This document shows, in pieces, positions 2,188 through 51,956 of a DNA stretch of 64,000 bases. Origin of the DNA: an uncultured bacterium. GTDB taxonomy: Bacteria > Patescibacteriota > Doudnabacteria > UBA920. Every line of letters starts with the position of its first letter. Within the stretch, counting starts at the first letter, position 1. Under the pieces are notes generated by a model. The model saw only the letters and a program-made list of their open reading frames with translations. It searched no databases and had not been told where the DNA came from. The stretch lies in assembly GCA_963749445.1 (NCBI GenBank), contig CAVVMJ010000010.1, positions 181,738-245,737 of the forward strand, read 5' to 3'. The position numbers were made by a program, and so were the translations under genes.

Positions 2188-2345
2188 ATTCCCCTCTCCA
2201 ATTTATGGAGAGGGTGCCCGACCGCTACTAGAACTTAAAAGGAAGCGGGAGGGCGGGAGAGATTAAGTCCTGGTTTTAACCTCTCTGTCCCGACTAAAGT
2301 CGGGACATCTCCCCATTAAATGGGGAGAATAATATTGTGCTTCGC
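2188..2345. repeat. R2 GC-rich hairpin repeat in rpmC-rplP spacer
   Basis: CCCCTCTCCAATTTATGGAGAGGGTG...GTCCCGACTAAAGTCGGGACATCTCCCCATTAAATGGGGAGAATAATATTGTGCTTCGCTCTATCCC. Confidence 0.8.
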
Positions 2346-5730: not shown

Positions 5731-5739
5731 AATGTTTAT

Positions 5740-5872
5740 CTCCAACCACCTCCCCCGCCTGCGGCGGGTACTCCTCCTTAAAAAGGAGGAGAGCTCCGCG
5801 GTATTGCGGATAACTGCGGAGCTTCCCTCCTGCCAAGGAGGGATGTCCCGCAAAGCGGGACGGGGTGGTTGT
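5740..5872. repeat. R1 GC-rich modular hairpin repeat, A-spacer-B palindromic pair
   Basis: CTCCAACCACCTCCCCCGCCTGCGGCGGGTACTCCTCCTTAAAAAGGAGGAGAGCTCCGCGG ... GCGGAGCTTCCCTCCTGCCAAGGAGGGATGTCCCGCAAAGCGGGACGGGGTGGTTG; same modules as copies at 12315, 16248, 29219, 30712, 37884, 40021, 50671, 51806. Confidence 0.85.
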
Positions 5873-5886
5873 TAAATGTTAAATGT

Positions 5887-12303: not shown

Positions 12304-12314
12304 ATGGATTATGC

Positions 12315-13306: not shown

Positions 13307-13372
13307 GGCCCCGGATATTTTTTGCGGCCTGCGATAACCATCAGCGCAAAAAATTCCGGGGTGGAAACTATT
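13307..13372. repeat. R3 hairpin repeat copy
   Basis: GGGCCCCGGATATTTTTTGCGGCCTGCGATAACCATCAGCGCAAAAAATTCCGGGGTGG. Confidence 0.75.
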
Positions 13373-16131: not shown

Positions 16132-16247
16132 AAAAAATTAGTTTTTAGATATTAGTTGTTAGGTTTTAGGTTTTAGGTTTTACATTGTGCAGCGGAAAAG
16201 TATATACTTCGGTATATACAAAATTTTCAAAGTTCTTTTGCAAATCC

Positions 16248-16393
16248 GCGGAGCTTCCCCTCCTTCCCTCCTTGCTGAGGAGGGGTGGATCGCGTTAGCG
16301 AGACGGGGTGGTATTTATCCGCAAAGACTCCAACCACCTCCCCCCTCGACTTCGCTCGGGGTACTCCTCCTTAAAAAGGAGGAGAGGCTCCGC
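16248..16393. repeat. R1 repeat, B-spacer-A pair (gene-less derivative of the DUF559 element)
   Basis: GCGGAGCTTCCCCTCC...GGAGGGGTGGATCGCG...GACGGGGTGGTATTTATCCGCAAAGACTCCAACCACCTCCCCCC...TACTCCTCCTTAAAAAGGAGGAGAGGCTCCGC; between fusA and rpsG. Confidence 0.85.
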
Positions 16394-16438: not shown

Positions 16439-17053
16439 CTATCTCCGCCCAAACCTCGCAAAATGCGCAAACGCCTTATTGGCCTCTGCCATCCTGTGCA
16501 CGTCTTCTCTCTTCTTTATGGCTGCACCGGTGCGGTTGTAGGCGTCCATAATTTCTCCGGCCAATTTTTCCTTCATGGGCGCGCCTTTTTTGGCCCTGGC
16601 CGCGGCCAACAGCCAGCGGATGCCGAGCGTGGTCTTGCGCGGCTCCTGAACTTCCATCGGCACCTGATAGTTAGCCCCGCCGATTCTGCGGGATTTTAAC
16701 TCCATCATCGGGGCGACGTTTTTTAACGCGATATCAAATACCGCTCGGCCGTCCAACTTTTGCGGTGCCGCTGATTTTTGCGGAACTGCAGTATTCCCCT
16801 CCTTTTTAAGGAGGGGCGTCTGCGCAGCAGACGGGGTGGTTGGAGATTTGACTGAAACAGCAACCGGAGCCGCCACGGGCATCGCGGCCATTTTTTTCTC
16901 CACAATCTCCAAAGCGTCGTAAAAAATCCTGCGCGCCACGTTTTTCTTGCCGCGCTGCATCAAATAATTTATAAATTTGGCATACTTGACCGAGCCGAAT
17001 TTCGGGTCCGGCAAAGGCACGTGTTTGTCGTAGCTCCTTGATTTTCTGGGCAT
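16439..17053 (-). CDS. rpsG: 30S ribosomal protein S7 with about 46 aa in-frame insertion partly encoded by an R1 half-repeat
   Basis: 204 aa versus about 156 typical; N-terminal (PRKSRSYDKHVPLPDPKFGS) and C-terminal (KKREDVHRMAEANKAFAHF) S7 blocks flank AMPVAAPVAVSVKSPTTPSAAQTPLLKKEGNTAVPQKSAAPQKLDG. Confidence 0.9.
   Translation of the reverse strand: MPRKSRSYDKHVPLPDPKFGSVKYAKFINYLMQRGKKNVARRIFYDALEIVEKKMAAMPVAAPVAVSVKSPTTPSAAQTPLLKKEGNTAVPQKSAAPQKLDGRAVFDIALKNVAPMMELKSRRIGGANYQVPMEVQEPRKTTLGIRWLLAAARAKKGAPMKEKLAGEIMDAYNRTGAAIKKREDVHRMAEANKAFAHFARFGRR
16801..16864. repeat. R1 half-repeat (B) inside rpsG coding sequence, in frame
   Basis: GGAACTGCAGTATTCCCCTCCTTTTTAAGGAGGGGCGTCTGCGCAGCAGACGGGGTGGTTGGAG. 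Confidence 0.85.
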
Positions 17054-17055
17054 GG

Positions 17056-17130
17056 TTTTAGCTTTTAGCGATTAGCTTTTAGCGATTAGCCAGCCATGTC
17101 TGGCTAAATGCTAACTGCTAAATGCTAACT
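17056..17130. repeat. H1 spacer hairpin (TTAGCG/GCTAAA tandem-repeat arms)
   Basis: TTTTAGCTTTTAGCGATTAGCTTTTAGCGATTAGCCAGCCATGTCTGGCTAAATGCTAACTGCTAAATGCTAA; copies also at 57..130, 1587..1670, 7903..7972, 17553..17632. Confidence 0.8.
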
Positions 17131-17136
17131 TCTTGT

Positions 17137-17550
17137 TTACTTCTTCTTGGCTCCATACTTAGACCGAGAGCGTTTCCGACCGTCAACGCCTAATGTGTCC
17201 AATTTCCCTCTGATGATATGATAGCGCACGCCGGGCAAATCTTTTACCCTGCCGCCGCGGATCATCACCACACTGTGTTCCTGTAAGTTGTGGCCGATGC
17301 CCGGAATATAGGCAATCACTTCCATGCCGTTGGTGAGTTTGACTTTGGCGACTTTGCGCAAAGCCGAGTTCGGCTTTTTGGGCGTGGTGGTATAAACCTT
17401 AAGGCACACGCCACGCATAAACGGCGCGCCTTTGGCAATCCACAAGGTGCGGTTTTTGATTAAGTTGACGCGGCGCAACAAAGCCGGAGCCTTGCTTTTG
17501 GCCTGTAAACTGTGCCTGCCGTGCCTGACTAACTGGTTGATTGTGGGCAT
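17137..17550 (-). CDS. rpsL: 30S ribosomal protein S12
   Basis: 137 aa; [12 protein letters not shown]...[14 protein letters not shown]...[11 protein letters not shown] canonical S12. Confidence 0.9.
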
Positions 17551-17552
17551 TT

Positions 17553-17632
17553 CGTTAGCTTTTAGCGTTTAGCGATTAGCGATTAGCCAGCCATGTTTGG
17601 CTAAAAGCTAACTGCTAAATGCTAAATGCTTT
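17553..17632. repeat. H1 spacer hairpin upstream of rpsL
   Basis: TTCGTTAGCTTTTAGCGTTTAGCGATTAGCGATTAGCCAGCCATGTTTGGCTAAAAGCTAACTGCTAAATGCTAAATGC. Confidence 0.8.
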
Positions 17633-17862
17633 AACGGATTAAACTTGAATAAGCAATAAAAAAGCCGACAAAAGATGTCAGATCTTCTGCTTTCGCCTGC
17701 TTGGTACTCATCAGAAACCTATTGATGTCGGCCGGTGGCCTGCTTCCCAAAACCTGCGACTAAAAAATAGTGATTCGCCGCTCGCGCGGCGGGTTTCTTA
17801 TTCAATTAAAAGAATTATATACCAAGCTTGCAAAAAAGTCAACATTTAGATAATGTTATTTT

Positions 17863-21345: not shown

Positions 21346-22410
21346 TCAATGCCAAACAACATCCTTCCCAACCGGCACAAGCTCCGCCCAAATCGGCCCG
21401 CGGTTAAAGTTGATTTCTTTACCGTCTTGATCATAATAGCGGGTACGGCCAGAAACCTTTTCCCACGTGCCGATGATAATCTTGCCGTCCTCAAACACAT
21501 CCGCCCTGCCTCCGACTTCTAAATCCAGGCCGATGGACAGCGGCGTGTCGCTTTTGACGGGATAAGTTTTCACGAACTGGACAACAATATTTTTGGCGCT
21601 AATTTGTTTGCCGGTGTCCAAATCTTTGTGCGGCTTGCCGGCCAAAAATCTTGAATAGGAATTATCCAAAATATTATATTTCCACTCCACGACGTAGTCG
21701 TGGGTGGAAAAACTGATGTTTATGTCCGCGGCCGTGGAACTGGCAAAAATTTTCCCTCCCTCCCCCTCCGGGGGAGGGATTGAGGAAGAGGGGCTGTCGT
21801 CTTTAAATCGCCACGGCTGATAAATCGTCGCGTCAGAGAAGAACTGACGGGCACCAATCAGCTTGTCCAATTTATCAATCGACGTGTAAACGTTATGCGG
21901 CATAGTGCGCCAAGTAACACGCTGGAAATACGGGTCGTTAAAAAATTGGTCAGCGTCGCTGATGTTTGGGTAATCGCCCGCTTTGATATTTGCCAAAGCA
22001 TCTGAGTTGCCGCCCACGTGCGCAAAAACCGCACCCCATTCGTCCGCAATTTCGGCAAAATACGTCCTCGCGCTTCGCACCGGCCCGATGTTTTTGGCCG
22101 CTTTACTTTGGTATAGCGCCAAAAACCGCGTAATGCCACCCTCGGTCGGGGCTTCGTAAACCACATCGGCGTCCAAAAGGCCCGACTGCGGCCTGGCGTA
22201 GGGGTAGTTTTCCACCATCACGCCAATGGGGCGCCGCCCTGCAATTTGTCCCTCAACTTTTTGCCCGTCCATAGCCAAAAACTCCTCGGGCCGCGCCGAA
22301 ATCTTTACAACCTGATTTTGCCGATCAATGCCAGCTTTATGCCCCCGATCCCAGAACCAAAAAATGATTGCGCAAAACAAAATTAGCGCAACCAAAATGC
22401 GTTTTTCCAT
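21346..22410 (-). CDS. DUF3048 domain protein (YerB-like), membrane anchored
   Basis: IGVMVENYPYARPQSGL...VVYEAPTEGGITRFLALY matches DUF3048; start taken at MEKRILVALILF; contains a small in-frame palindrome CCTCCCTCCCCCTCCGGGGGAGGGATTGAGG. Confidence 0.7.
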   Translation of the reverse strand: MEKRILVALILFCAIIFWFWDRGHKAGIDRQNQVVKISARPEEFLAMDGQKVEGQIAGRRPIGVMVENYPYARPQSGLLDADVVYEAPTEGGITRFLALYQSKAAKNIGPVRSARTYFAEIADEWGAVFAHVGGNSDALANIKAGDYPNISDADQFFNDPYFQRVTWRTMPHNVYTSIDKLDKLIGARQFFSDATIYQPWRFKDDSPSSSIPPPEGEGGKIFASSTAADINISFSTHDYVVEWKYNILDNSYSRFLAGKPHKDLDTGKQISAKNIVVQFVKTYPVKSDTPLSIGLDLEVGGRADVFEDGKIIIGTWEKVSGRTRYYDQDGKEINFNRGPIWAELVPVGKDVVWH

Positions 22411-23256: not shown

Positions 23257-25065
23257 TTAATGGCCGAAAAATCCTCTGGCTAAACTGTCCGGCAATAAAC
23301 AAAGGCTGATGTTTTTATCTTTGCAAAACTTTTTAATTTCAGGGTCGCGCACACTGCCGCTTGTGGCTATTATAGCACAAATCCCGGCTTTTGCCAAAAC
23401 TTCCACCCCGTCCACGAACGGGAAAAAACTGTCGCTGTAGGCCACCGCGCCTTTGGTTTGATGTCCCGCGTCCAGGGCCCGTTTGATGGCCAACTGGCAG
23501 CAGCCGACTCTGTCCTGCTGCCCCACACCGTTGCCGATTAACATCCCGTCTTTGACCAAAGTGACAGTGTTGCTGTTGCTGGTGGAACCGATTGCCCAGG
23601 CCAAAAGCATATCGGATTTTTGCTGATCGGATAATTTGCCGATAAACTCCGGCCGAGGGTTCCCCTCGGTTTCCGAACGGCTCCGGTCCGAGGGGAACCC
23701 TCGGGTCAAATCCAAAACAAAATCATAATTCGGCTGGGCCAAAAACCCGCCGCGCACATAACGGAACCGACGATGGCTATCCGGCGAGTTTTTTGACAGA
23801 TTCCCCAGCGCGGGGTTTACCAAAAACCGGCACTTGTCGCCTTTGCGTTTTAACATTCTGACCGCTCCTTCGGTAAAGGATGGAGCAATAATCCCATCAA
23901 GCAACCTCCGCGGCTTGCCCGCCGAAGCTTCAGCGAAGGTGGGAGCTTTCCCCTCCTTTTCAAGGAGGGGTCCGGCCGAAGGCCGGGGGGTGGTTGGAGC
24001 CATCCGATGTGTAAGCAATATTTCCGCCAATTTTTCGTCAACCAAAAAATTTACCATCACCAGCCCGCCAAAAATCGCGCGCAAATCCCCTTCCAGCATT
24101 TTTTGGATGGCCGATGACGGCGTATCGGAAACCGCCGCACCGCACGGGTTGCCGTGCTTTACCCCCAAAGCTATATTCATTATTCCCTTCCCCCTCTGGG
24201 GGAAGGTGGCCGTGAGGCGGCCGGATGAGGGTTTTATTACGGATTGCAACAAAGTGGGATTGCAGTCAAACCCTGCCGCAATGTGCGTTATGGTCTGCAG
24301 CAATCTGTCCACGTCCGCCCAGTTGTTGTAACTTACCGGCATGCCGGCCAATAATCGGAATTTCGATAGCGATAATTCATCACTATCTGAAATCGCATAC
24401 AATCCCGCCGGCGTCTGGCATGCATTCTCGCCATATTTACAAATTGCGGCGCGGTGACCAACCATTCCTTCGTATTCGCCCGCTCCGTGATAGCGCGCGG
24501 ACGACAAACAGTACTCCGCCACAATAAATTCCGCTTTAGCTGCAAGCTGGTCCAAAAATTTTTCTTTATCAGGCTTGCCGTTTTTTAACCAGCTGATGAC
24601 TGCCACCCTGTCGTCCGGATCACAAACGACGATTCTTCTTCCCTTGGCCGCGCTCCGGAGCATTGTCGGCCCGCCAATGTCAGTCTTTTCGATAACAGCT
24701 TCCCTGGCCTTTGCCGATCCGACTTCCGATTTTCCGATTTTTCCGATTTCTTCCGACAACGGATACAAATCCACGCACACCAAATCTATCCACGGGATTT
24801 TTAATCGATTTAATTCCTGCCGATCTTCATCGGTATCCCGCGCCAAAAGCCCGGCGTGGACTTCGCGCGACAACGTGACTACGCGATGACCCAAAATCGC
24901 CTTACCGCCGGCCAAAGAAGCCACATCAGTCACTTTAATTCCTGCGTCTGACAAAGCTTTGGCTGTCCCTCCGCTCGCCAAAATTTTAAATCCCAAATCC
25001 GCCAACTCTTTGGCAAATTCCACAATCCCGTCTTTATTATAAACCGAAATCAGTGCGGTTTTCAT
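23257..25065 (-). CDS. purH: bifunctional AICAR transformylase / IMP cyclohydrolase, with several in-frame repeat-encoded insertions
   Basis: 602 aa; N-terminal MGS-like domain (MKTALISVYNKDGIVEFAKELADLGFKILASGGTAKAL) and AICARFT domain; about 80 aa longer than typical because of insertions at 23653..23706, 23941..24000, 24170..24235, 24711..24760. Confidence 0.9.
   Translation of the reverse strand: MKTALISVYNKDGIVEFAKELADLGFKILASGGTAKALSDAGIKVTDVASLAGGKAILGHRVVTLSREVHAGLLARDTDEDRQELNRLKIPWIDLVCVDLYPLSEEIGKIGKSEVGSAKAREAVIEKTDIGGPTMLRSAAKGRRIVVCDPDDRVAVISWLKNGKPDKEKFLDQLAAKAEFIVAEYCLSSARYHGAGEYEGMVGHRAAICKYGENACQTPAGLYAISDSDELSLSKFRLLAGMPVSYNNWADVDRLLQTITHIAAGFDCNPTLLQSVIKPSSGRLTATFPQRGKGIMNIALGVKHGNPCGAAVSDTPSSAIQKMLEGDLRAIFGGLVMVNFLVDEKLAEILLTHRMAPTTPRPSAGPLLEKEGKAPTFAEASAGKPRRLLDGIIAPSFTEGAVRMLKRKGDKCRFLVNPALGNLSKNSPDSHRRFRYVRGGFLAQPNYDFVLDLTRGFPSDRSRSETEGNPRPEFIGKLSDQQKSDMLLAWAIGSTSNSNTVTLVKDGMLIGNGVGQQDRVGCCQLAIKRALDAGHQTKGAVAYSDSFFPFVDGVEVLAKAGICAIIATSGSVRDPEIKKFCKDKNISLCLLPDSLARGFFGH
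23941..24000. repeat. R1 half-repeat (B) in frame inside purH
   Basis: GGGAGCTTTCCCCTCCTTTTCAAGGAGGGGTCCGGCCGAAGGCCGGGGGGTGGTTGGAG encodes APTTPRPSAGPLLEKEGKAP. Confidence 0.8.
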
Positions 25066-29218: not shown

Positions 29219-29278
29219 GCGGAGCTTCCCCTCCTGCCAAGGAGGGGTGTCGCGCGAAGCGTGACGGGGTGGTTGGAG
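29219..29278. repeat. R1 terminal inverted repeat (B) abutting stop of DUF559 gene
   Basis: GCGGAGCTTCCCCTCCTGCCAAGGAGGGGTGTCGCGCGAAGCGTGACGGGGTGGTTGGAG. Confidence 0.85.
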
Positions 29279-29635
29279 TTATTGCAAATGTTTCCCGATT
29301 TCAGCCAACACCCCTTCTAAATTTTTAATTACATCGCCGTTTTGAAAACGGATAACCTTTATGCCTTTGCTCTCCAAATATCTTGCGCGTTCCTGGTCTT
29401 TTGTGTAGCCCTGTTCCGTATCGTGAGGCGAACCATCAAGTTCTATGGCTAATTGCCTGCTTGGGCAATAAAAGTCCAGGATATAATAACCAATGCCGTG
29501 CTGCCGCCTGAATTTTACTCCCAATTGGTTATTCTTGAGATGCACCCAAAGTCTGGCTTCTGCCGGGGTTAAATGCTTGCGTAGTTCTTTCCGGTTATTT
29601 TTTGAGCCTATTAGATTATTCAACCTATCAGTCAT
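29279..29635 (-). CDS. DUF559 domain protein (Vsr-like endonuclease fold), second intact copy
   Basis: 118 aa; LTPAEARLWVHLKNNQLGVKFRRQHGIGYYILDFYC...ELDGSPHD; framed exactly by R1 inverted repeats as at 12375..12725. Confidence 0.7.
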   Translation of the reverse strand: MTDRLNNLIGSKNNRKELRKHLTPAEARLWVHLKNNQLGVKFRRQHGIGYYILDFYCPSRQLAIELDGSPHDTEQGYTKDQERARYLESKGIKVIRFQNGDVIKNLEGVLAEIGKHLQ

Positions 29636-29698
29636 GCTCCAACCCCCTCCCCCGCCTTCGGCGGGTACTCCCCCTTGACAGGGGGAGAGGCTCCGCGG
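29636..29698. repeat. R1 terminal inverted repeat (A) abutting start of DUF559 gene
   Basis: GCTCCAACCCCCTCCCCCGCCTTCGGCGGGTACTCCCCCTTGACAGGGGGAGAGGCTCCGCGG. Confidence 0.85.
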
Positions 29699-30655: not shown

Positions 30656-30711
30656 GGATTATTTTTTAAGATTTACTATAGTGAATCTGCTTTTCAGATG
30701 CACGGATATCC

Positions 30712-30840
30712 GCGGAGCTCCCCTCCTAATATAGGAGGGGTGTCCTGCGAAGCGGGACGGGGTGGTATTATCTGTGCCGGTATTTTACCACCTCCCCGCC
30801 CTGCGGGCGGTACTCCTCCTTTTCAGGAGGAGAGTACTGC
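30712..30840. repeat. R1 repeat B-spacer-A pair (gene-less)
   Basis: GCGGAGCTCCCCTCCTAATATAGGAGGGGTGTCCTGCGAAGCGGGACGGGGTGGTATTATCTGTGCCGGTATTTTACCACCTCCCCGCCCTGCGGGCGGTACTCCTCCTTTTCAGGAGGAGAGTACTGCAG. Confidence 0.85.
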
Positions 30841-30886
30841 AGCCGATAAATCGGCACGCTACACTAAAGCGTATGCCCCGCACAAG

Positions 30887-36532: not shown

Positions 36533-39500
36533 TTAAACCACAAAATTTATTAAGCGGTCAGGCACAAAAATCACCCGCCTGATATTTTGGGTTCCGACGA
36601 TTGCCACAGCCTGCTGTTTAACTTGATTCTCATCGCTTCCCGGCGACACCGTAATGCGGCCTTTGACTTTGCCGTTGACCTGCACCACGATTTCAATTGT
36701 GGCGTCAACGATTTTTGCCGGGTCAAACGCCGGCCAGCTTTCCAGCTGGAGCGATTTTTTGCCTCCGATGATTGAATTTAGTTCTTCTGCCAGATGCGGC
36801 GCGAACGGATGTAACAATTTTAGAAAAATTTTAAAATCTTCCTTCGAAATATTTTGGCCAAAAGCTTGAATATTTTTTAAATTTAAATATTTTTCAAACT
36901 TTGGATCTTTTGATTTAATCATTTCTTCTCGGGTAATATAAATTTCGTTCATAAACACCATAAGACCGGATACGCAGGTGTTAAATCGAAAATTTTCTAT
37001 ATCCTCTTCGACTTTTTTTATAGTTTTATTCAAAGCTTTCTCAACTTGTCCGTCAGTAAAATTCATTACATCGTTATCTTCCATCGCCTTTAGACTTAAA
37101 CCGACCTGATATACCTTATCCAAAAATCTTTTGACCCCGACTACGCTTTTGTCGTTCCAGGCGATGGTGTCCTCGTGCGGACCCAAAAACAACTCAAACA
37201 TGCGCAACGTGTCCGCGCCGTGCGAGGCTACAATATCCTGCGGATTGACCACGTTGCCGCGGCTTTTGGACATTTTTTCGCCGTCCGCAGCCAAAATTAT
37301 GCCGTGAGGCACGCGTTTAACATACGGCTCCCTTGATGTAACCAATCCTTGATCAAACAAAAATAAATTCCAAAACCGGCTGTAAAGCAAATGCAAAGTC
37401 GTGTGCTCCATGCCGCCAAAATAAACGTCCACCGGCGTCCAGTATTTTTGTTTGCTGATGGACGCGAATTCTTTTTTGTCTTTTGGATCGATATACCTTA
37501 ACCAATACCAACTGCTACCTGCCCATTGCGGCATAGTGTTGGTTTCTCTTTTTGCCGGCGATTTGCAATTCGGACATTTTACATTAACCCAGTTTGATAT
37601 TGCGGCCAATGGCGATTCTCCTGTTCCTGTCGGCTGGTAATTTTTGACCGGCGGGAGTTTTACCGGCAAATCCTTTTCGGCTACCTCCACAATACCGCAT
37701 TTTGGGCAATGAATAATCGGAATCGGCTCGCCCCAGTAGCGCTGGCGGGAAAATACCCAATCACGGAGTTTATACTGGACAGTCGCTCTGCCGAATTTTG
37801 CTGCCATTTTGGGAATTGCATCTTCTGACTTCATTCCGGTAAATTCACCGGAATTAATCAAAGCACCATAATCCGCAACGGCTCCGACCACCTCCCCGCC
37901 TGACGGCGGTACTCCCCCTTGAAAAGGAGGAGAGCTCCGCGTGACATCCGAGAATAACTGCAGAGCTTCCCCTCGCTTCTTTAAGGAGGGGTGGACGCGA
38001 AGCGAACGGGGTGGTTGGAGACACAACTTGCTTAATTGGTAAACCGTATTTCTTCGCAAACTCAAAATCCCGCTCATCATGCGCCGGCACGGCCATAATC
38101 GCGCCGGTGCCATAACCCCAAAGCACGTAATCCGCCGCCCAAATCGGGATTTCTTCTTTTGTTGCAGGATTAATCGCCTTAATACCTTTTAACTCCACTC
38201 CGGTTTTTTCCTTACCTTCTGATGAACGATCCATTTCCGATTTTTTCTTTGCCTTTTCTACATATTCCTCAACTTCTTTGTAATTTGATCCGCCTTGGCG
38301 GATGAAATTTTCTGTCAACGGATGTTCCGGTGCCACCACCATATATGTCGCGCCGAAGATAGTGTCCGGCCGCGTGGTAAAAACTTTGATTAACGGCAAG
38401 ACGGCGGCCAAAACTTCCGGTTCTTGCTCGGCGCGAAAATGAACCAGTTGCCCTGCTTTTCTAGTGATAGGCGCGTTCAAAACTTCCGACAGTTGGGCAG
38501 CTTGATCGTCGGAAATTGCATCGTCGTTGGGATCATGTAAAATTGTAATTGAACCGGCTTTATTTTTAATCGCCGAAAAATCAAAACTCCATTTAAAATT
38601 TTTTTGAAAAGGCCTGGGTGGTCTTTAAAATTTGGGCTGACAAAACCGCCGACCAATACCAGTCCAGCGATTTTTGCCTGTAATTTTTCCAGAACTTTCA
38701 TCGCCACCACCGTTCCCAAACTATGGCCGACTAAAATTGTATTTTCGCCAAAACGGCAATTTTTCAAAACAAAATTAACCTGCGCTTCTTCACTGGGATT
38801 AGTCGGATTCGGCAAGGCCGGTATATCCACTTTCATACCTTTAAATTCCAATTGGCTTTTTAGCCAAGGATAGAATCTGGTTTCCGGCGTTTCATTCCAA
38901 CCGTGCAAAATTACGTAATTATGTTTTGCGTTTAGGGTAAAATTAATTTCCGCGCCCACAGACTTGCCAATCCAGTTTTCCTGTTGGAGCTTAACCGCTT
39001 CCGGCCACTCGGGCAGATGTTTTAATCCTTCCAAAAGTTTTTCCGCATACGCAGTAATTCTTAAATACCACTGGCGCAATTCTTTTTTTTCAACGACTGT
39101 GCCGCAGCGCTCGCATTTGCCGTCTATGACTTCTTCGTTAGCCAAACCGGTTTTGTCTTTCGGACACCAATTAATCAAACCTGTTGCCTCGTAGGCCAAT
39201 CCTTTTTTAAAGAATTGCAAAAACAGCCATTGTGTCCATTTATAATAATTCGGGTCTGTGGTATTTATTTCCCGCGACCAATCAAAACTTAAACCCCACG
39301 ACTGCATTTGTTTTTTGGCATTTTTGATATTTTTCGCCGTGGTTACCGCGGGCTGGACGCCTTTTTTATGGCATAATTTTCCGCCGGCAAACCAAACGCG
39401 TCCCAGCCGATGGGAAACATAACCTCATAGCCCCGCATACGATGATAACGAGCATAAACATCCGCGGCCACGTACGGCCGCAAATGCCCCATATGCAAAC

Positions 39501-39691: not shown

Positions 39692-40666
39692 TCAGATGTT
39701 AAATAGTTTTTTTGCATTTTTGGTCGTCGATTCCGTAACTTCTTTAATTGACAAACCTTTTATCTCCGCAACCTTATCGGCCACAAACCTTACATAGCTC
39801 GGCTCGTTTCTTTTGCCTCGATGAGGCGCCGGCGATAAATACGGGCAATCGGTTTCCAGTAAAATTTTATCAAGCGGCGCGAGTTTTACCAACTTTTCCA
39901 TATTGCCGGTTTTGTCAAATGTGATTATTCCGTTAAAGCTGACATACGCGCCGCGGTCGAGGAATTTTTGGAGATATTCTGGACTTCCCGTGTAACTGTG
40001 CACCTCAAACCTCAAACCGGCTCCAACCCCCTCCCCGCCCTTCGGGCGGTACTCCCCCTTGTCAGGGGGAGAGGCTCCGCCTATATCCTCGGTCAACTGC
40101 GGAACTTCCCCTCCTGCCAAGGAGGGGTGTCCCGCGGAGCGGGACGGGGTGGTTGGAGTTTTTTCCTCATCAAGTATCTCCAGTAAATCATCATAAAGCG
40201 ACTCATCACCTTTTGCCGGGCGACTGTGGACTACTAAAACTTTATTTAATTCTTTTGCTAATTTCACTTGCTCCCGAAATGCAGCTTTTTGTTTATCTTT
40301 GACTTGCTGATGGTCGCCATCCGCAGGAAACCGATAATAATCCAGCCCGCACTCCCCTATCCCGACAACTTTCGGGTTTGTCGCTATACTTTGGTATAGC
40401 GCTTCGTCAAAATGCTCTTCGCGGGTAAGAAAATGCGTTTCTTCTTCATCAACGTATTGGGAATGGGTATGCTCGGGATGCAAACCGACAACCGCGTAAA
40501 TCCCCTCTTTAAATTGATTAGCCAATTCCACGGCCTCTCGTGACGTGTCTATTTGCGACCCGACGTTTATGACCCAAGTATCATTATCAAGCGCCCGCTG
40601 CAAAGCTTCTTTGGCATCGCCCTTAAACGCGCGAAAATTCACGTGAGCGTGGGTGTCAATCAACAT
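39692..40666 (-). CDS. tatD: TatD family hydrolase with about 50 aa in-frame insertion encoded by an R1 pair
   Basis: MLIDTHAHVNF, GIGECGLDYYR, VVHSR, ETDCPYL motifs; 324 aa versus about 260 typical. Confidence 0.85.
   Translation of the reverse strand: MLIDTHAHVNFRAFKGDAKEALQRALDNDTWVINVGSQIDTSREAVELANQFKEGIYAVVGLHPEHTHSQYVDEEETHFLTREEHFDEALYQSIATNPKVVGIGECGLDYYRFPADGDHQQVKDKQKAAFREQVKLAKELNKVLVVHSRPAKGDESLYDDLLEILDEEKTPTTPSRSAGHPSLAGGEVPQLTEDIGGASPPDKGEYRPKGGEGVGAGLRFEVHSYTGSPEYLQKFLDRGAYVSFNGIITFDKTGNMEKLVKLAPLDKILLETDCPYLSPAPHRGKRNEPSYVRFVADKVAEIKGLSIKEVTESTTKNAKKLFNI
40021..40158. repeat. R1 repeat A-spacer-B pair, in frame inside tatD
   Basis: CTCCAACCCCCTCCCCGCCCTTCGGGCGGTACTCCCCCTTGTCAGGGGGAGAGGCTCCGC ctatatcctcggtcaactgc GGAACTTCCCCTCCTGCCAAGGAGGGGTGTCCCGCGGAGCGGGACGGGGTGGTTGGAG; encodes KTPTTPSRSAGHPSLAGGEVPQLTEDIGGASPPDKGEYRPKGGEGVGAG. 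Confidence 0.9.
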
Positions 40667-40690: not shown

Positions 40691-42304
40691 TTATGAATCG
40701 ATGCGGGGAAATAACCGTGGGATATTTTCCAATTTCGGATCTTTCAAAACCTTATCCGCCTTCGCTAAAGCTTCGGCGGATGGCCCGCTATTTATTAAAT
40801 TAAGGTGGGCCAAAATCTTTTCGCTGGTTTGAGGAAGGAAGGGAATTAAATCGGTTGCGATTTTGTGCAGCTCCGACAGCAGATATTGTATATCTTTCAC
40901 TGCTTTTTCTTTGTCAGTTTTTATAACTTTAAAGGGCTCGCTTTTCTGGATAAATTCGTCACAGGCTTTTATTTTTTGCCAAATTTGGTCCAAGGCTTTT
41001 TGGAACTGATAGCTATCCATAAATAATTTTAACCCCTCTGCCTCGGATGCACTCGGCATCTCCCCATGAATTGGGGAGAATAATATTGAGTTGGCTCTAG
41101 CCATCTTTAAAATCCTGCTGGTCAAATTCCCCAAGCCGTTGGCCAAGCCGGCGTTATAGCTTTCCACGAACTTTTCCCAGGTATAGTCGCCGTCTTCAAA
41201 GGTGGAAATTTCGCGGAGCAAAAAATAACGCAAGGCGTCTATAGCCTGCTCGTTGGTAAGGCCTTTGGATTTTAATTTGTCGATAATTTGATATGGGTCG
41301 GCCACATTGCCCAAAGATTTGGACATTTTTTGCCCGCCGCTGTTAATGAAGCCGTGGATAATGATTTGCTTGGAATTCGGCAGGCCGGCGGACATTAGCA
41401 TCGCCTGCCACATTGCCGATTGCTGCCTGAGATTGTCCTTACCCGCGATTTGGATGGCATTCGGATGCTCGTGAGTTCCCCAGAAATCGGGGAATCGGAG
41501 GTCGGATGAATCGGAGGTCGGAGCAGTATCCGATTTTCCGATTTTCCGATTTTCCGATCTATCCGATTCAGGCCAGCCCAAAGTTGAAACGTAATTTATC
41601 AGCGCGTCAAACCAGACGTACATTACGTGATCTTCGTCCTCCGGCACGGGCACGCCCCAAGGCATTTTTGATTTTAATCGCGATATGGAAAAATCGTGCA
41701 GGCCGGATTTTACAAACTGCTTAATTTCATTAAAGCGGAAATCCGGCACCACAAACTCGGGATTTTTTTCGTAAAACTCCAAAAGCGGCTGTTGGTAGCG
41801 GGAAAACCGGAAAAAATAATTTTCTTCGTCAATCAGTTCAATTCGCAAATGCGGGTGGATTAGGCACTGGCCGTCTCCGTTCAAATCGCTTTCCGTTTTT
41901 TCCAGCTCGCAGCCCACGCAGTATTTAACTTTATAAATTTTCTTATAAATATCACTCTTGTTAAAACATCTTTTCCAAAACTCCCGGCTGGCGGCAATGT
42001 GGTGCTTGTCCGTAGTGCGGATAAAATGGATGCCCGATGAAATGCCCAAAGCCGGCATCAACTGCCTAAACTTATCCGCGTACTCATCAACATAACTCTG
42101 GATATCCTTGCCGGTACTTCGCGCCTTGGCATAAACTTTTTGCCCGTGTTCGTCCGTGCCGGTATTAAAAAACACGTCCTGCTTTAACACCTCCTTGTGG
42201 TAACGGGCAATGGCATCGGCCTGGACCATTTCCAAAGCAAACCCAAGGTGCGGGTCAGCATTCACATAAGGCAGGGTGGTGGTGATGTAAAATTTATCGG
42301 GCAT
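40691..42304 (-). CDS. metG: methionyl-tRNA synthetase with two in-frame repeat-encoded insertions
   Basis: 537 aa; PYVNADPHLGFA (HIGH-type), KMSKSLGN; insertions at 41031..41101 (R2 hairpin) and 41487..41570 (TTTTCCGAT micro-repeats). Confidence 0.9.
   Translation of the reverse strand: MPDKFYITTTLPYVNADPHLGFALEMVQADAIARYHKEVLKQDVFFNTGTDEHGQKVYAKARSTGKDIQSYVDEYADKFRQLMPALGISSGIHFIRTTDKHHIAASREFWKRCFNKSDIYKKIYKVKYCVGCELEKTESDLNGDGQCLIHPHLRIELIDEENYFFRFSRYQQPLLEFYEKNPEFVVPDFRFNEIKQFVKSGLHDFSISRLKSKMPWGVPVPEDEDHVMYVWFDALINYVSTLGWPESDRSENRKIGKSDTAPTSDSSDLRFPDFWGTHEHPNAIQIAGKDNLRQQSAMWQAMLMSAGLPNSKQIIIHGFINSGGQKMSKSLGNVADPYQIIDKLKSKGLTNEQAIDALRYFLLREISTFEDGDYTWEKFVESYNAGLANGLGNLTSRILKMARANSILFSPIHGEMPSASEAEGLKLFMDSYQFQKALDQIWQKIKACDEFIQKSEPFKVIKTDKEKAVKDIQYLLSELHKIATDLIPFLPQTSEKILAHLNLINSGPSAEALAKADKVLKDPKLENIPRLFPRIDS
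41031..41101. repeat. R2 hairpin repeat in frame inside metG
   Basis: CCCCTCTGCCTCGGATGCACTCGGCATCTCCCCATGAATTGGGGAGAATAATATTGAGTTGGCTCTAGCC; near-identical 3' part to intergenic copy 2293..2345. Confidence 0.8.
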
Positions 42305-44241: not shown

Positions 44242-45174
44242 TCAATTTTTATTTCTTAATTTTTTTAATATCTCAATATCTGCCTTTACCTTATCATGTT
44301 CTGTTTCAAATATCAATGGCATGTCAAGGCCAACAGCGCCGAAGGCATCATTATTTCTCTCCCCCTTCGGGGGAGATGTCGCGTTTGACGCGACGGAGAG
44401 GGTGCCAAAATAACGGATAAGCGCCCCAAAACCCTTTTCCCCGATTTTACCGTCGCCAATGTGCTCGTGACGGTCTTTTTTGCCGCCAAGGTCTATTTTG
44501 GAGTCGTTAATGTGGCTCATTTTTAGCCATTTGAGGCCAATGATTTTATCAAATTTTTTAAAAACCGATGACACCGCCGCGTCGTCGCGCAAATCATAAC
44601 CGCTGGCAAAAGCGTGCTGGGTATCAAAACAAATGCCGCCAAAAGTTTTAAATTTCACCAACGGTTTCATAAGTTCAGCCAACTGTTCAAACGTGCCGCC
44701 TAAAGTTTCCCCGGCTCCAGCCGCTATCTCGAGCAGAAACTGCGTGTCGCCCTGATATTTTTTTAGAACTTCTGATAAGCCTTCTTTAGCCTGCTTTAAA
44801 GCCTTCTCTTTTCCCAGATCCTTACCGCTGCCCAAATGCGTCATCACATATTTTGCGCCAAGTAAATTTGCGCGCTTTAATTCTTCCCCAACAACGGAAA
44901 TTGAGCCGTGATAAATTCTTGGCGCCTTTGAACCAAAATTGATGAAATAAGGGCAATGGACCACAAAAATATCTAGCTGATATTTTTGCATCTCATCTTT
45001 AAATCTTTCAATCATTAAATCATTCAATTCCGGAGCTTTCCCTCCCATCGGCGGCCGCGTGAAAATCTGGAAAGTTTCGCAGCCCAAAAGAGCCGCGTTT
45101 TTTGGCGCGTTAAAAACCCCTCCCGCGACGGAAACATGGCAGCCGATTAACAGTTTATTTATCATCGACCTCAT
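44242..45174 (-). CDS. nfo: endonuclease IV (AP endonuclease, TIM barrel) with a short in-frame palindrome-encoded insertion
   Basis: GCHVSVAGG, HxxYLINL-type and HDxxGxG metal-binding blocks; palindrome TCTCTCCCCCTTCGGGGGAGATGTCGCGTTTGACGCGACGGAGAGGG at 44353..44410 in frame. Confidence 0.8.
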   Translation of the reverse strand: MRSMINKLLIGCHVSVAGGVFNAPKNAALLGCETFQIFTRPPMGGKAPELNDLMIERFKDEMQKYQLDIFVVHCPYFINFGSKAPRIYHGSISVVGEELKRANLLGAKYVMTHLGSGKDLGKEKALKQAKEGLSEVLKKYQGDTQFLLEIAAGAGETLGGTFEQLAELMKPLVKFKTFGGICFDTQHAFASGYDLRDDAAVSSVFKKFDKIIGLKWLKMSHINDSKIDLGGKKDRHEHIGDGKIGEKGFGALIRYFGTLSVASNATSPPKGERNNDAFGAVGLDMPLIFETEHDKVKADIEILKKLRNKN

Positions 45175-51805: not shown

Positions 51806-51956
51806 GCGGAGCCTCCCCTCCTATTCCAAGAATTTCATTAGAACATAGGAGGGGTGGATCGCGAAGCGAGACGGGGTGGTATATAAATTGCCGATAACTA
51901 CCACCTCCCCCGCCTGCGGCGGGTACTCCTCCTATTCTAGGAGGAGAAGCTCCGCG
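51806..51956. repeat. R1 repeat B-spacer-A pair immediately upstream of tgt
   Basis: GCGGAGCCTCCCCTCCTATTCCAAGAATTTCATTAGAACATAGGAGGGGTGGATCGCGAAGCGAGACGGGGTGGTATATAAATTGCCGATAACTACCACCTCCCCCGCCTGCGGCGGGTACTCCTCCTATTCTAGGAGGAGAAGCTCCGCG. Confidence 0.85.

Follow-up and report, generated by a model that had tools for sequence, protein, structure and literature searches.

A triplex-type repeat associated with DUF559/YcjD nuclease genes and read through in frame in a Doudnabacteria genome

The stretch of Doudnabacteria DNA analysed here (64 kb, the window) carries about 21 copies, at 11 sites, of a 60-nt module termed R1 which consists of two hairpins and a mirror strand. We are highly confident that R1 is a triplex-type repeat which is coupled to DUF559 genes and is read through in frame. 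Most likely it is a selfish repeat that operates at the DNA level together with a Vsr-like nuclease. BoxC/PIT/triplex repeats have been known since the 1990s, and PIT (potential intrastrand triplex) elements were reportedly treated by Hoyne and Maher in 2000. To our knowledge these repeats have neither an accepted function nor a known means of spread; similarly, DUF559/YcjD is a very widespread protein family for which we know of no substrate. Triplex motifs of the BoxC/PIT/TMECO kind occur in bacteria including E. coli (Holder et al., 2015; PMC4666352). According to the most detailed study of triplex repeats, mobility genes have never turned up nearby (PMC4666352).

Results

Number and arrangement of R1 modules

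The modules were identified by two repeat families (D1/D2), nhmmer and a covariance model of R1 (Table 1). The total of about 21 is made up of 19 matches to the covariance model (E<1e-4, filters off) and two modules in tgt, which are split by nested inserts and were counted beside the 19. All positions at which a first-pass annotation of the DNA had placed a module actually hold one. Its density of at least 12 copies in 64 kb is corrected to about 21 modules; at least five additional modules from other triplex sub-families are located in the same 64 kb. The pattern GGAGGGG-N12-26-GGGGTGGTTGGAG was matched 5 times in the window and not once in 100 shuffles, and a sequence-agnostic finder of triplex motifs yielded 25 matches compared to none in 30 shuffles. 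This excluded chance. An independent Logan assembly (ERR10755942) is 100% identical to window positions 11175-13925, one DUF559 element included. Exact-match look-ups of the window's S7, TatD, S19 and two DUF559 proteins retrieved no record, and a single DUF559 protein led to an independent contig. The best DNA and protein matches of the window point to Candidatus Doudnabacteria.

The ~60-nt unit is reused in both orientations with variable linkers, as had been proposed: it is found alone, in head-to-head or tail-to-tail pairs and in longer clusters of alternating units. Head-to-head pairs carry CTCCAACC outward; their terminal inverted repeats (CTCCAACC / GGTTGGAG) comprise 8 nt, and their size is fixed at 138-139 nt. 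Tail-to-tail pairs carry GCGGAG outward and are terminated by the inverted repeats GCGGAGC / GCTCCGC; two of them, 12315-12787 and 29219-29696, enclose DUF559 genes. The two arms of the pairs in the window differ systematically in type. Type-A arms have the stem CCCCTCC and the third strand GGGGTGG; in the second type the stem is CTCC(C/T)CC and the third strand is GAGG(G/T)GG or GGGGAGG. In the pair at 16247-16393 the A arm (16247-16318) is on the plus and the B arm (16327-16393) on the minus strand. Individual pyrimidine arms, purine arms and third strands vary, e.g. CTCCTCC / GGAGGAG / GAGGTGG at 5739-5800 and CCTCCCC / GGGGAGG / GGAGGGG at 12315-12375. The latter module is located in the 5' leader of a lipoprotein gene (11368-12303), and the head-to-head pair 5739-5875 stops 8 nt upstream of a lipoprotein start codon (5730).

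Table 1. R1 modules, related triplex-type modules and DUF559 genes in the window (R1 in the last column, match to the covariance model).
Feature	Position	Strand	Evidence
Module of second sub-family, intergenic, immediately 3' of rplP	2273..2337	-	R1 21.8 bits; triplex finder
Left half of head-to-head pair, type B	5739..5800	-	R1 55.1 bits; triplex finder
Right half of pair 5739-5875, type A	5815..5875	+	R1 41.4 bits
Module, tail toward DUF559 stop codon	12315..12375	+	R1 40.3 bits; perfect triads
DUF559/YcjD-like Vsr-fold endonuclease gene, 116 aa	12375..12725	-	Pfam PF04480, E=6.6e-34
Type-B module, abuts DUF559 start codon	12726..12787	-	R1 32.8 bits; triplex finder
Tail-to-tail pair flagged by first-pass annotation, rpsG-fusA spacer, no DUF559 gene	16247..16393	.	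nhmmer, R1
Single module within rpsG (ribosomal protein S7)	16787..16846	+	R1 78.1 bits; PDB alignment gap
Weak triplex-type motif, DUF3048 gene, linker between two domains	21744..21803	+	R1; triplex finder
Single module within purH, in frame as APTTPRPSAGPLLEKEGKAP	23941..24000	+	R1 81.7 bits
Module of second sub-family within purH (VIKPSSGRLTATFPQRGKGIMN)	24177..24238	+	R1 17.4 bits; triplex finder
Type-A module, tail abuts stop codon of second DUF559 gene	29219..29279	+	R1 55.4 bits
DUF559/YcjD-like endonuclease gene, 118 aa	29279..29635	-	Pfam PF04480
Type-B module, ends 1 nt before DUF559 ATG	29636..29696	-	R1 38.9 bits
Gene-less tail-to-tail pair between parB and tRNA gene	30711..30841	.	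R1
Head-to-head pair within leuS	37881..38021	.	R1
Head-to-head pair, in frame, tatD-family gene	40020..40159	.	R1
Module of second sub-family within metG, read as SILFSPIHGEMPSASEAEGLKL	41026..41088	-	R1; triplex finder
Module of second sub-family, in frame, AP_endonuc_2 (xylose-isomerase-like TIM barrel) gene	44350..44409	+	R1; triplex finder
Head-to-head pair, in frame, tgt (residues 297-375)	50670..50905	.	R1
Gene-less tail-to-tail pair between pnp and tgt	51806..51955	.	R1

The fixed length and the terminal inverted repeats of the head-to-head pairs might indicate a classical MITE, which arises from an insertion sequence by deletion and depends in trans on the transposase of that element, encoded at another place in the genome. 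MITEs such as Coxiella QMITE, ERIC and Correia, which fuse with host open reading frames (PMC10969869, PMC5896051), are likewise small, non-autonomous and palindromic, have terminal inverted repeats and may sit inside genes; gene insertion in our window resembles that of Rickettsia palindromic elements (RPE) and Coxiella MITEs. Yet target-site duplications, flanking direct repeats or a common target sequence were not seen at the 11 sites, and a transposase is absent in the window and beside modules in ~190 loci. A parent insertion sequence was not found for R1, its units combine modularly with the same arms in the opposite arrangement and as singles, and the module is common to distant phyla, where it accompanies DUF559 rather than an insertion sequence. 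Therefore, we consider a MITE very improbable.

REPs are imperfect palindromes of 20-40 bp with a GTAG or CGTC tag. The first-pass annotation had compared the repeats with BIMEs. In a REP/BIME system a REP-associated tyrosine transposase (RAYT) moves short palindromes that lie outside genes. The alternating orientation of short structured units, the variable linkers and the clusters do agree with such a system, as does a single-copy-type protein gene between inverted units, which resembles the RAYT gene between REPs; in both cases the repeat appears to differ with the protein lineage. The remainder of the comparison failed. A Y1/HUH transposase was absent among ~55 window ORFs scanned against Pfam, and the gene which is flanked by modules encodes a Vsr-like PD-(D/E)XK nuclease instead of an HUH/Y1 enzyme. 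R1 has a different anatomy (60 nt, two hairpins, a mirror strand, no GTAG/CGTC tag), many copies are intragenic and the same module is used across phyla. A REP/BIME identity of R1 is hardly credible.

Anatomy of the module

The order of elements in R1 is CCCCTCC, a loop, GGAGGGG, a variable hairpin and GGGGTGG(TTGGAG). The closing G-rich run mirrors the purine arm and thus creates a purine-motif intrastrand triplex motif. Because of this mirror-repeat third strand, which the first-pass annotation had missed, R1 is a member of the BoxC/PIT/TMECO class of intrastrand triplexes, with loop 2 expanded into a GNA-capped mini-hairpin. On the G-rich strand CCCCTCC would pair with GGAGGGG to form hairpin 1, the second, sequence-free hairpin with its GNA triloop would occupy the place of the 3-nt loop 2 of TMECO, and GGGGTGG would fold back on hairpin 1, with the purine arm of which it would form G*G:C, T*A:T and A*A:T triads.

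Both hairpins display compensatory changes in the covariance-model alignment. In 140 copies, 96.6% of the cells were paired compared to 80.4% in shuffles and 65-81% with slid partners, numbers which derive from an alignment that was itself fitted to the covariance model. Hairpin 1 (CCCCTCC/GGAGGGG) was paired in 99.4% of the cells of these copies, and double changes from C-G to U-A and from U-A to C-G were seen. Changes on both sides affected 10 of 13 pairs and included both hairpins; the covariation score was 0.364 (shuffles, 0.109; slid partners, ≤0.054). Hairpin 2 had 121 distinct sequences among the 140 copies. Since the genome-scan pattern fixed GGAGGGG and GGGGTGGTTGGAG, the conservation of both blocks in the scan loci is partly built in. 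When 37 modules were aligned with MAFFT, their unequal loop lengths put the alignment out of register; a gapless seed and the covariance model were used instead. Palindromy and covariation could also be by-products of copying, i.e. of fold-back synthesis, and not of selection for the fold.

The third strand follows the purine arm. Allowed triads were present at 950 of 975 purine-arm/third-strand positions; shuffles had 918 ± 2.5, and 0 out of 2000 reached the observed value. Wherever the T-A pair of hairpin 1 is replaced by C-G, the T in the third strand is changed to G (8 of 8 cases), and an A elsewhere in variants is mirrored by A or T. Variants with perfect triads were found among the window modules by the triplex finder. 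The mini-hairpins had been described as closed by tetraloops. This did not hold for hairpin 1, the loop of which mostly has 5-8 nt (26 nt in the A arm of the pair at 51806). Loop 2 is itself a covarying hairpin of 12-34 nt. GNA triloops were identified on the G-rich strand in 83 of 138 copies, TNC triloops in none. Such GNA triloops are typical of stable DNA mini-hairpins.

Does the covariation reflect folding of RNA? A structured RNA element, e.g. a terminator, stabiliser, sRNA or ribozyme, would account for the strong covariation of both hairpins, several copies lie within operons and so must be transcribed, and G.U-compatible pairs exceed A.C pairs (22 G.T versus 6 A.C). On the other hand, the copies are not oriented uniformly with respect to transcription: both directions are represented, and from the two single copies (rpsG, purH) it is the C-rich complement that enters the mRNA. 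Many copies are within coding sequence. Instead of GNRA or UNCG tetraloops, the module has GNA triloops. Searches against Rfam with the window (gathering threshold) and with five loci (E-value) returned only tRNAs and chance microRNA matches. Finally, the conserved third strand obeys the triad rules of purine-motif triplexes, which are not formed in RNA (PMC4666352). An RNA element is thus improbable, and we read R1 as acting at the DNA level and not as an RNA or protein motif. DMS footprinting of E. coli in vivo revealed no protection of the triplex (PMC4666352); in Doudnabacteria the triplex is a fold which the G-rich strand may adopt.

Association with DUF559 genes

The two DUF559 proteins encoded in the window scored 116.5 and 112.2 bits with PF04480 (cut-off 20.6). 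The 118-aa protein is 44% identical to E. coli YcjD. The nearest solved structure is 3HRL (NGO0050; E=2.5e-18), and the homing endonuclease I-Bth0305I is weakly similar in its catalytic domain (3R3P, E=0.076). All 14 aligned proteins share D54, E65, D67 and H71, the candidate catalytic residues. Both genes are bounded by module tails, with the ORF located between the two halves of a palindrome and delimited exactly by GGTTGGAG(C)ATG and TAA-CTCCAACC. The tail-to-tail pair is a conserved seat of this small Vsr-fold endonuclease gene. DUF559 genes bounded by modules are also present in loci from Gammaproteobacteria, Burkholderiales, Acidobacteriota and Doudnabacteria, which had been chosen via the DNA motif, and in three loci chosen via the protein (Adhaeribacter, Flavobacteriales, Opitutaceae). 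We then have 80 metagenomic loci which were picked by the peptide KFRRQH[SG][VI]G alone. An upstream module in the G-rich orientation was present in 67 and a downstream module in reverse orientation in 60 of these; 73 had at least one of the two and shuffles had none, an adjacency that is silent on which of the two, gene or repeat, depends on the other. Strains of E. coli have 1-29 TMECOs; in K-12, with only 23 of them, TMECO no. 9 is situated ~170 bp away from ycjD. Triplex-like motifs with other stems are present within ~200 nt of the gene in DUF559 loci from Cyanobacteria, Deinococcus, Sphingomonas and Neisseria.

The tail-to-tail pairs at 16247-16393, 30711-30841 and 51806-51955 had been interpreted as the DUF559 element with the gene replaced by a short spacer. 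The link is real, yet these pairs are not simple deletion derivatives because their arms end in GGTGGTA/TACCACC and enclose unrelated spacers of 15-18 nt, whereas the ORF is bounded exactly by GGTTGGAG and CTCCAACC. The centre GGTGGTA...TACCACC, which had been given for all three, is correct at 30711-30841 (with 18 nt in between); at 16247-16393 it is GGTGGTA...CAACCACC. An intact GGTTGGAG|CTCCAACC junction was not seen among the gene-less pairs, and a defined cleavage site was not found at the window sites.

Possibly, DUF559 is just a homing-type passenger. The repeats would then spread on their own, e.g. by polymerase stalling at the fold and template switching, the palindromic tail-tail junction would be a neutral multi-copy landing site, and gene-less copies would not be moved by DUF559. 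The ORF exactly fills the gap between GGTTGGAG and CTCCAACC, and its removal leaves a perfect palindrome, a typical site for a dimeric nuclease. The similarity to I-Bth0305I points in the same direction, most modules are far from any DUF559 gene, PIT elements act as blocks to DNA polymerase in vitro, and TMECO sites are prone to instability (PMC4666352). Against a passenger, the gene-less tail-to-tail pairs in the window do not show the intact junction which the nuclease would need, and at some DUF559 genes a module is missing from one side, or upstream modules are arrayed in tandem in the same orientation. Further, the stem sequence varies between lineages along with the DUF559 protein, a pattern expected if the protein recognises the repeat itself. 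In our estimation a passenger is unlikely, although it carries more weight than any other alternative to nuclease-driven spread.

Copies inside genes

The pairs had been labelled gene-less. This is right insofar as a DUF559 ORF is absent; five sites, however, are inside the coding sequence of other genes. Four of the five inserts are in frame (rpsG, purH, tatD, tgt) and one is out of frame (leuS). The in-frame inserts were judged against solved homologues of S7, PurH, TatD and Tgt, and their positions correspond to gaps between the aligned blocks. The rpsG module is read on the minus strand as SPTTPSAAQTPLLKKEGNTA and is part of a 43-aa insert (S7 residues 56-98). The second module in purH is within ~27 extra amino acids compared to solved PurH structures (break in the PDB alignment at 270/302). 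The pair in tatD has 138 nt, i.e. 46 codons. It is in frame as well in the ortholog of a related genome (L026; 77% protein identity), and between the two species a compensatory change from C-G to T-A was observed. In tgt each arm contains a nested insert of ~45 nt from another small repeat, and close relatives have differing inserts at this site. An AlphaFold model of Tgt (alignment of 26 sequences) had a mean pLDDT of 44.5, too poor to place the insert. The metG module (TCTCCCC / GGGGAGA / AGAGGGG, perfect triads) is listed only as a possible replacement, because a clear net insertion compared to solved MetRS structures was not evident in the PDB alignment.

The pair in leuS, which occupies 139 nt in the window, changes the reading frame; in L026 this site is empty. 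One might take the frame change as a sign that the element is removed at the RNA level. This argument was set aside because leuS has two further frame changes at poly-A runs and LeuRS is encoded in pieces in many related genomes. Similarly, rplB, rplV, rpsC and probably rplD appear frame-shifted or truncated in the window, which suggests that the frame changes in these genes and in leuS are consensus errors.

At least 13 more ORFs from Doudnabacteria and Saccharibacteria have in-frame inserts, mostly in the PTTP frame, which reads (S/T/A)PTTP. A single frame is used by about 16 of 18 coding copies in antisense orientation. In Doudnabacteria 34 of 50 modules are in open frames versus 116 of 250 random segments, i.e. 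there is no depletion, whereas modules from other phyla are depleted (29 of 79 versus 310 of 430). The prevalence of one frame and the retention of the tatD insert in two species might indicate a feature selected by the host, either a protein linker motif (PTTP...GGE) or a site for chromosome organisation, instead of selfish DNA. But the same DNA exists between genes, in either orientation and in further phyla, there is free variation in the encoded peptides wherever the hairpins covary, the insertion sites are variable loops, and presence/absence and content differ between relatives. We give host selection a very small chance.

Occurrence in other phyla

Copies of R1 are not restricted to the window. 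The module was also detected in Proteobacteria, Acidobacteriota, Bacteroidota, Verrucomicrobiota and Planctomycetota. Restriction to the window, and stems free of compensatory variation, were the two findings which according to the first-pass annotation would have spoken against its proposal; copies beyond the window and compensatory changes were found instead. Literature searches by sequence strings retrieved unrelated primers only, and topic searches retrieved nothing that links DUF559/ycjD, triplex repeats and palindromes of the candidate phyla radiation. The triplex motif of R1 itself is of a known kind (BoxC/PIT/TMECO; Holder et al., 2015; PMC4666352). In the literature searched, neither the association with the nuclease nor the inserts in coding sequence appear to have been reported.

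Discussion

How does R1 relate to known repeats? It shares with BoxC/PIT/TMECO the sequence of pyrimidine arm, loop, purine arm, loop and G-rich mirror strand (class II purine motif), is G/C-rich, multi-copy and highly conserved, and is found singly or in inverted pairs, the two members of which are always of different types (type A and type B in E. coli). In Adhaeribacter copies loop 2 is TTA, exactly as in TMECO type A, and one TMECO adjoins the E. coli DUF559 gene ycjD. The published TMECO pattern, CCCTCNCCC-N3-6-GGGNGAGGG-N3-GGGNGAGGG, is not matched by R1. TMECO stems have 9 nt, those of R1 7 nt and a different sequence, and loop 2 of R1 (12-34 nt) is outside the 1-6 nt to which the published search was limited; consequently, R1 is a variant and not TMECO. 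Moreover, R1 has the extra conserved ends GCGGAGC and TTGGAG, unlike TMECO. TMECOs are reported as always intergenic and without an associated gene, whereas R1 is also within coding sequence and is accompanied by DUF559.

The coding copies are reminiscent of the RPEs (Ogata et al., 2000, cited from PMC10969869). To the extent described in that source, these are palindromes of ~100-150 bp which are located in frame in unrelated housekeeping genes of a bacterium with a reduced genome and are translated into additional stretches of peptide, one reading frame being preferred. As portrayed there, they are confined to Rickettsia and come with neither a known nuclease gene nor a triplex-type mirror strand. 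The RPEs are unrelated to R1 in sequence, and R1 is plentiful in intergenic DNA and in other phyla as well. As for the protein, YcjD has been linked to Vsr by profile comparison (Feder and Bujnicki; PMC1189080). Vsr, I-Bth0305I and NGO0050 are small nicking or cutting enzymes with a restriction-endonuclease fold like DUF559. In contrast to Vsr and I-Bth0305I, the DUF559 gene is neither beside a methyltransferase nor in an intron; it is between triplex repeats.

Taken together, we regard it as on balance probable that R1 is a selfish triplex-type repeat which provides a tail-to-tail seat for DUF559, spreads by way of the nuclease and gives rise to translated inserts. DUF559 would recognise the module in its folded form or in that of the palindromic tail-tail junction and would nick or cut there. 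A 118-aa nuclease alone cannot carry out strand transfer; host repair, recombination or template switching may copy modules to new places, with or without the gene. In Doudnabacteria new copies would also enter coding regions. Survivors there would be those which are a multiple of three, free of stops and in the frame rich in Pro/Thr/Ser/Gly, and they would be translated as extra loops, like the Rickettsia palindromic elements. A wider proposal, which we put forward tentatively and hold to be somewhat less probable, is that DUF559/YcjD proteins are the dedicated partner nucleases of BoxC/PIT/TM repeats across Bacteria, a selfish system similar to REP-RAYT in which a Vsr-fold enzyme recognises the folded hairpin/triplex and drives its spread. 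Essential genes in CPR bacteria would be colonised by translated in-frame inserts, which possibly mark split points (leuS).

The near-constant adjacency of DUF559 and repeats across phyla, E. coli K-12 ycjD included, links two open problems. DUF559 is the first testable candidate for a mover of triplex repeats, and both its substrate and the spread of the repeats become testable with simple experiments in a model organism. Genes for a ribosomal protein, tRNA modification, nucleotide synthesis and an aminoacyl-tRNA synthetase are colonised in frame, and therefore the phenomenon of the RPEs is not peculiar to Rickettsia. In candidate-phyla genomes the inserts lead to inflated protein lengths, broken assemblies and spurious peptides, which matters for annotation. 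The finding also bears on how reduced genomes tolerate selfish DNA.

R1 copies in the window

The window (G+C 45-50%, most genes on the minus strand) contains ribosomal-protein operons, tuf, fusA, purH, glyA, leuS, metG, tgt and pnp. About 21 copies of R1, a repeat module of ~60 nt, were located at 11 sites, counting the two arms in tgt that are split by nested inserts. Every module placed by the first-pass annotation was recovered by four methods, i.e. a repeat finder, nhmmer (nine-copy profile, 19 matches at E<1e-5 in the window), an exact pattern (5 matches vs 0 in 100 shuffles) and a covariance model scored at every window position. An independent assembly from a public run was 100% identical to the window over 2,751 nt around one element with a DUF559 gene (PF04480, a YcjD-like Vsr-fold endonuclease family). 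This demonstrated that the repeats are not an assembly artefact.

Other small repeats were observed. A 64-nt family, ACTGGATCCCGGATATTTTTTGCGGC...GCGCAAAAAATCCGGGATG, is a hairpin in itself, includes one inverted pair and bears no relation to the triplex module; one copy adjoins a tyrosine recombinase gene (phage-integrase family, XerC/D-like). A third small repeat of ~45 nt, TCGACTYCGCTC...CCCTGAGC...GCCGAATG, is nested in both arms of the tgt pair, where in one arm it occupies loop 1 with GTCA on either side; elsewhere it constitutes hairpin 2 of an R1 arm. Several spacers between ribosomal-protein genes are filled by palindromes in which a tandem array of 7-8-nt units faces its complement (e.g. 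four TTAGCGA and four GCTAAAT, or GTTCGTA...). The unit differs from spacer to spacer, and the palindromes look like terminator or processing hairpins.

Positions of repeats, inserts and genes in the window
Feature	Position
rpsC	2885-3725
rplV	3715-4495
Paralogous lipoprotein genes	4840-5730; 11368-12303
rplB	5880-6800
rplD	7440-7980
R1 copy with moved T-A pair	12324
DUF559 genes	12375-12725 (-); 29279-29635 (-)
R1 arm with ~45-nt repeat as hairpin 2	16327-16393
Palindromic insert in purH	23900-23940
leuS	36533-39639
~45-nt repeat in tgt arms	50714-50757; 50842-50886
Tyrosine recombinase gene	57700-58749
64-nt repeat family	9613-9676; 13303-13366; 58811-58874; 62033-62171
Micro-repeat palindromes	42-151; 677-742; 1075-1172; 1593-1688; 6741-6803; 7904-7988; 17044-17148; 17541-17645; 42320-42417

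Predicted fold of the module

On its G-rich strand R1 reads GCGGAGC, YY, CCCCTCC, a 5-8-nt loop, GGAGGGG, T, a hairpin of free sequence and GGGGTGG-TTGGAG. A covariance model seeded with 11 gap-free copies gathered 140 copies from the window and 57 loci. In this alignment, which is fitted to the model and thus biased toward pairing, 96.6% of the pairing cells were paired compared with 80.4% in shuffles and 65-81% with slid partners; the covariation score was 0.364 vs 0.109 in shuffles and at most 0.054 with slid partners. Compensatory stem changes, suggested as a check by the first-pass annotation, are present: 10 of 13 base pairs change on both sides. Hairpin 2 has 121 distinct sequences in the 140 copies, and its stem is nearly always 4-7 bp long. 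Given the effect size and the raw sequences the hairpins are beyond doubt. The sequence d(GCGNAGC) is a classic hyper-stable DNA mini-hairpin. Of 138 copies, 83 close hairpin 2 with a GNA triloop and none with TNC, and mismatches are G.T in 22 cases vs A.C in 6. These asymmetries indicated that the folding strand is the G-rich DNA strand.

The first-pass annotation overlooked that the conserved 3' run GGGGTGG mirrors the purine arm GGAGGGG. Triple helices of the purine motif have a third strand that runs antiparallel to the purine strand and forms triads G·G:C and T·A:T or A·A:T. Allowed triads were found at 950 of 975 R1 positions (shuffles 918 +/- 2.5; the observed value was reached in 0 of 2000). 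Covariation was three-way: when the T-A pair of hairpin 1 was replaced by C-G, the third-strand T was G in 8 of 8 cases. In one copy the T-A pair has moved (CCTCCCC/GGGGAGG) and the third strand has shifted along (GGAGGGG); type-B arms (CTCCTCC/GGAGGAG) have the third strand GAGGTGG. A sequence-agnostic triplex finder using rules only scored 25 times in the window and never in 30 shuffles, and exposed extra sub-families with other stems, e.g. TCTCCCC/GGGGAGA/AGAGGGG. R1 is a module for which a triplex fold in vivo is predicted from its sequence.

Holder et al. (2015; PMC4666352) described the same architecture, called BoxC in the 1990s and PIT elements by Hoyne and Maher (2000), and also known as TMECO. 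TMECO follows the pattern CCCTCNCCC-N3-6-GGGNGAGGG-N3-GGGNGAGGG; it forms a stable triplex in vitro, and in an in vivo footprint in E. coli protection of the triplex was not seen. The 23 copies in K-12 are intergenic without exception, inverted pairs combine a type-A and a type-B motif in every case, and the sites were linked to local genome instability; an association with mobility genes was not found (PMC4666352). The fold logic and the pairing of two motif types are common to R1 and TMECO. The stems of R1 have another length and sequence, and the main difference is a hairpin in place of the 3-nt loop, which puts R1 outside the loop limits of the published search (1-6 nt). In relatives from Adhaeribacter loop 2 is TTA as in TMECO type A. 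R1 is a variant of the BoxC/PIT/triplex-repeat kind, unlike the published TMECO pattern. The observation of the first-pass annotation was confirmed and its interpretation was right in part; R1 is not a BIME.

Distribution

Species-representative genomes were examined in one pattern scan. Two blocks were fixed in the pattern, and part of their conservation among the loci obtained follows from this choice. No demand was made on the pyrimidine arm, on hairpin 2 or on the presence of multiple copies, all of which were nevertheless found. The R1 module was found in at least six MAGs of Candidatus Doudnabacteria and in one each of Saccharibacteria and Magasanikbacteria. The two-hairpin module was also present in Contendobacter, Burkholderiales and other Beta- and Gammaproteobacteria, in Acidobacteriota, Planctomycetota, Verrucomicrobiota and Bacteroidota. 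Confinement to the window, which the first-pass annotation had named as evidence against its reading, was thus not seen. The best protein and DNA matches of the window were from Doudnabacteria.

Insertions in coding regions

The first-pass annotation had described gene-less pairs. Indeed, the DUF559 ORF is absent from these, but several copies are actually located inside host genes: single modules in rpsG and purH, head-to-head pairs (GCGGAG ends in the centre) in tatD, tgt and leuS. On entry into the host reading frame every one of these copies is read as (S/A/T)PTTP.... Alignments with solved homologues demonstrated that the copies in S7, Tgt, TatD and PurH are insertions. S7 has 43 extra residues (between positions 55 and 99), Tgt ~90 where the barrel meets the zinc domain, TatD ~50, and PurH has a ~27-aa block with a second-family module and a larger block with the R1 module. 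Adjoining the latter, a short palindromic insert encodes TFAEASAGKPRR; its peptide FAEA(S/T)A(D/G)K recurs in inserts of two Tgt homologues (P0004, P0009) and its DNA in a compared locus, L017.

The tatD insert is in frame at the same site in a second Doudnabacteria species (77% protein identity); the peptide has diverged, and a C-G to T-A double change keeps hairpin 2. The leuS of that species has no element. Close Tgt homologues vary at the insert site: some have nothing there, others a single arm, a pair or other small repeats. At this hot spot three homologues (P0009, P0012, P0064; alignment A1, columns ~400-500) carry a DPPSPRLRRTAPDS insert bracketed by a duplicated ~11-aa host segment ((V/A)EGY.T.DI(R/K)L), equal to a ~33-nt target duplication which has no counterpart at R1 modules.

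Other Doudnabacteria and Saccharibacteria loci contained at least 13 further ORFs with in-frame copies, and the PTTP frame is used by ~16 of 18 antisense-oriented coding copies. In a rough test, prone to distortion by the spurious open frames that abound in GC-rich genomes, 34 of 50 Doudnabacteria modules were in long open frames vs 116 of 250 random segments; for other phyla it was 29 of 79 vs 310 of 430. The direction fits what was reported for E. coli, where copies are intergenic, and marks location in coding sequence as a special trait of these reduced genomes. As in-frame coding inserts, R1 copies parallel the Rickettsia palindromic elements. For candidate-phyla bacteria such behaviour was not described in the searchable papers.

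The leuS pair (139 nt) shifts the frame. The gene is read in four pieces with further frame changes at A6/A7 runs near 39330 and 38590. In rplB the frame changes repeatedly and an in-frame stop occurs; the ORFs of rplV, rpsC and probably rplD look truncated or shifted. Other long genes (fusA, pnp, purH, metG, glyA) are intact, and these defects are probably local consensus errors in the assembly. In this clade, however, LeuRS may truly be split or remodelled; many relatives encode it in pieces, and many Doudnabacteria/Patescibacteria homologues on long contigs have only 400-650 aa or carry NUDIX/hydrolase domains. In leuS of the window a serine-hydrolase (alpha/beta-hydrolase) domain is inserted after the GAEINF motif.

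Coupling to DUF559 genes

Module tails enclose both DUF559 genes of the window: the 5' boundary reads ...GGTTGGAG(C)ATG, the 3' boundary TAA-CTCCAACC.... Loci retrieved with the DNA motif from Proteobacteria, Acidobacteriota and Doudnabacteria had the same arrangement, as had three picked by protein similarity only (Adhaeribacter arboris, a Flavobacteriales and an Opitutaceae MAG). It recurred among 80 metagenomic DUF559 loci selected solely by a peptide pattern. There, the covariance model had 270 hits, and the sequence-agnostic finder detected an upstream module in G-rich orientation within 200 nt of the gene in 67 loci, a downstream one in reverse orientation in 60, and at least one of these in 73; in shuffles it detected none.

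The window DUF559 protein shares 44% identity with YcjD of E. coli. TMECO no. 9 (Table 1 in Holder et al., 2015; 1,351,204-1,351,239) is ~170 bp downstream of ycjD (1,351,407-1,351,760), the stop codon of which is overlapped by a degenerate reverse motif. For any one gene, the estimated chance of lying within 200 bp of a TMECO (23 in 4.6 Mb) is ~0.2%. In this region (L106, K-12 1,351,040-1,351,410) an incomplete second copy of the 3'-terminal ~40 nt of ycjD (GGAGACGGTGCTGGAGAATATTC...) precedes TMECO no. 9, which looks like the footprint of a past rearrangement.

Triplex-like motifs were also located at most ~200 nt from DUF559 genes on replicons of Deinococcus, Sphingomonas and Picosynechococcus (the latter called by reading the sequence; the automatic finder gave no hit) and in the Neisseria gonorrhoeae genome. 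The stems are lineage-specific (C5/G5/G5, CCTCCCCC, CCCCTCCC, TCTCCC), which favors direct recognition of the repeat by DUF559. In the main rival reading DUF559 is only a homing passenger of the tail-tail junction, with repeats that spread via their own replication-blocking structure; the exact fit of the ORF between the palindrome halves favors this reading, and the data are compatible with both. In the 14 aligned DUF559 proteins acidic and His residues are invariant. The proteins match 3HRL, a structural-genomics 'endonuclease-like protein', and weakly the catalytic domain of the homing endonuclease I-Bth0305I; YcjD was tied to Vsr by profile comparison (Feder and Bujnicki; PMC1189080). A connection of DUF559 or YcjD to triplex repeats was not found in searchable papers.

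Upstream of some DUF559 genes from soil metagenomes (L120, L141, L142, L145) two or three modules are in tandem in the same orientation; downstream, reverse and forward pairs recur ~700 nt apart. In an Opitutaceae locus (L105, 1891-2406) a 282-nt unit with a module pair is tandemly duplicated. The window contains two paralogous lipoprotein genes (signal peptide MKK(L/I)F...LLLAAAC), each directly downstream of triplex modules; one of them, placed between rplB and rpsS, breaks the S10 operon. The terminal GGAG of a module, 9 nt before the start codon at 5730, could be a ribosome-binding site. The arrangement of lipoprotein and DUF559 element is conserved in L017.

Discussion

R1 is used in a modular fashion, as singles and two kinds of pairs; presence and content differ between relatives, and inside genes it survives only as open, mostly same-frame inserts. 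In the most likely reading, the G-rich strand would fold once it is single-stranded in replication or transcription. DUF559 would recognize the fold or the tail-tail palindrome and nick or cut, and repair or template switching would copy modules onward, with or without the DUF559 gene. Selection would purge coding insertions save those which read through as flexible Pro/Thr/Ser/Gly-rich loops. Interpretations as an RNA-level function, a REP/RAYT system, a classical MITE or a host-selected peptide were considered as well; each failed specific tests.

The data demonstrated that a conserved, fold-capable and strand-asymmetric DNA module is physically coupled to a nuclease gene across phyla. Judged by searchable papers, the systematic coupling of triplex repeats to DUF559/YcjD endonuclease genes is apparently new, as is the in-frame colonization of essential genes in Doudnabacteria.
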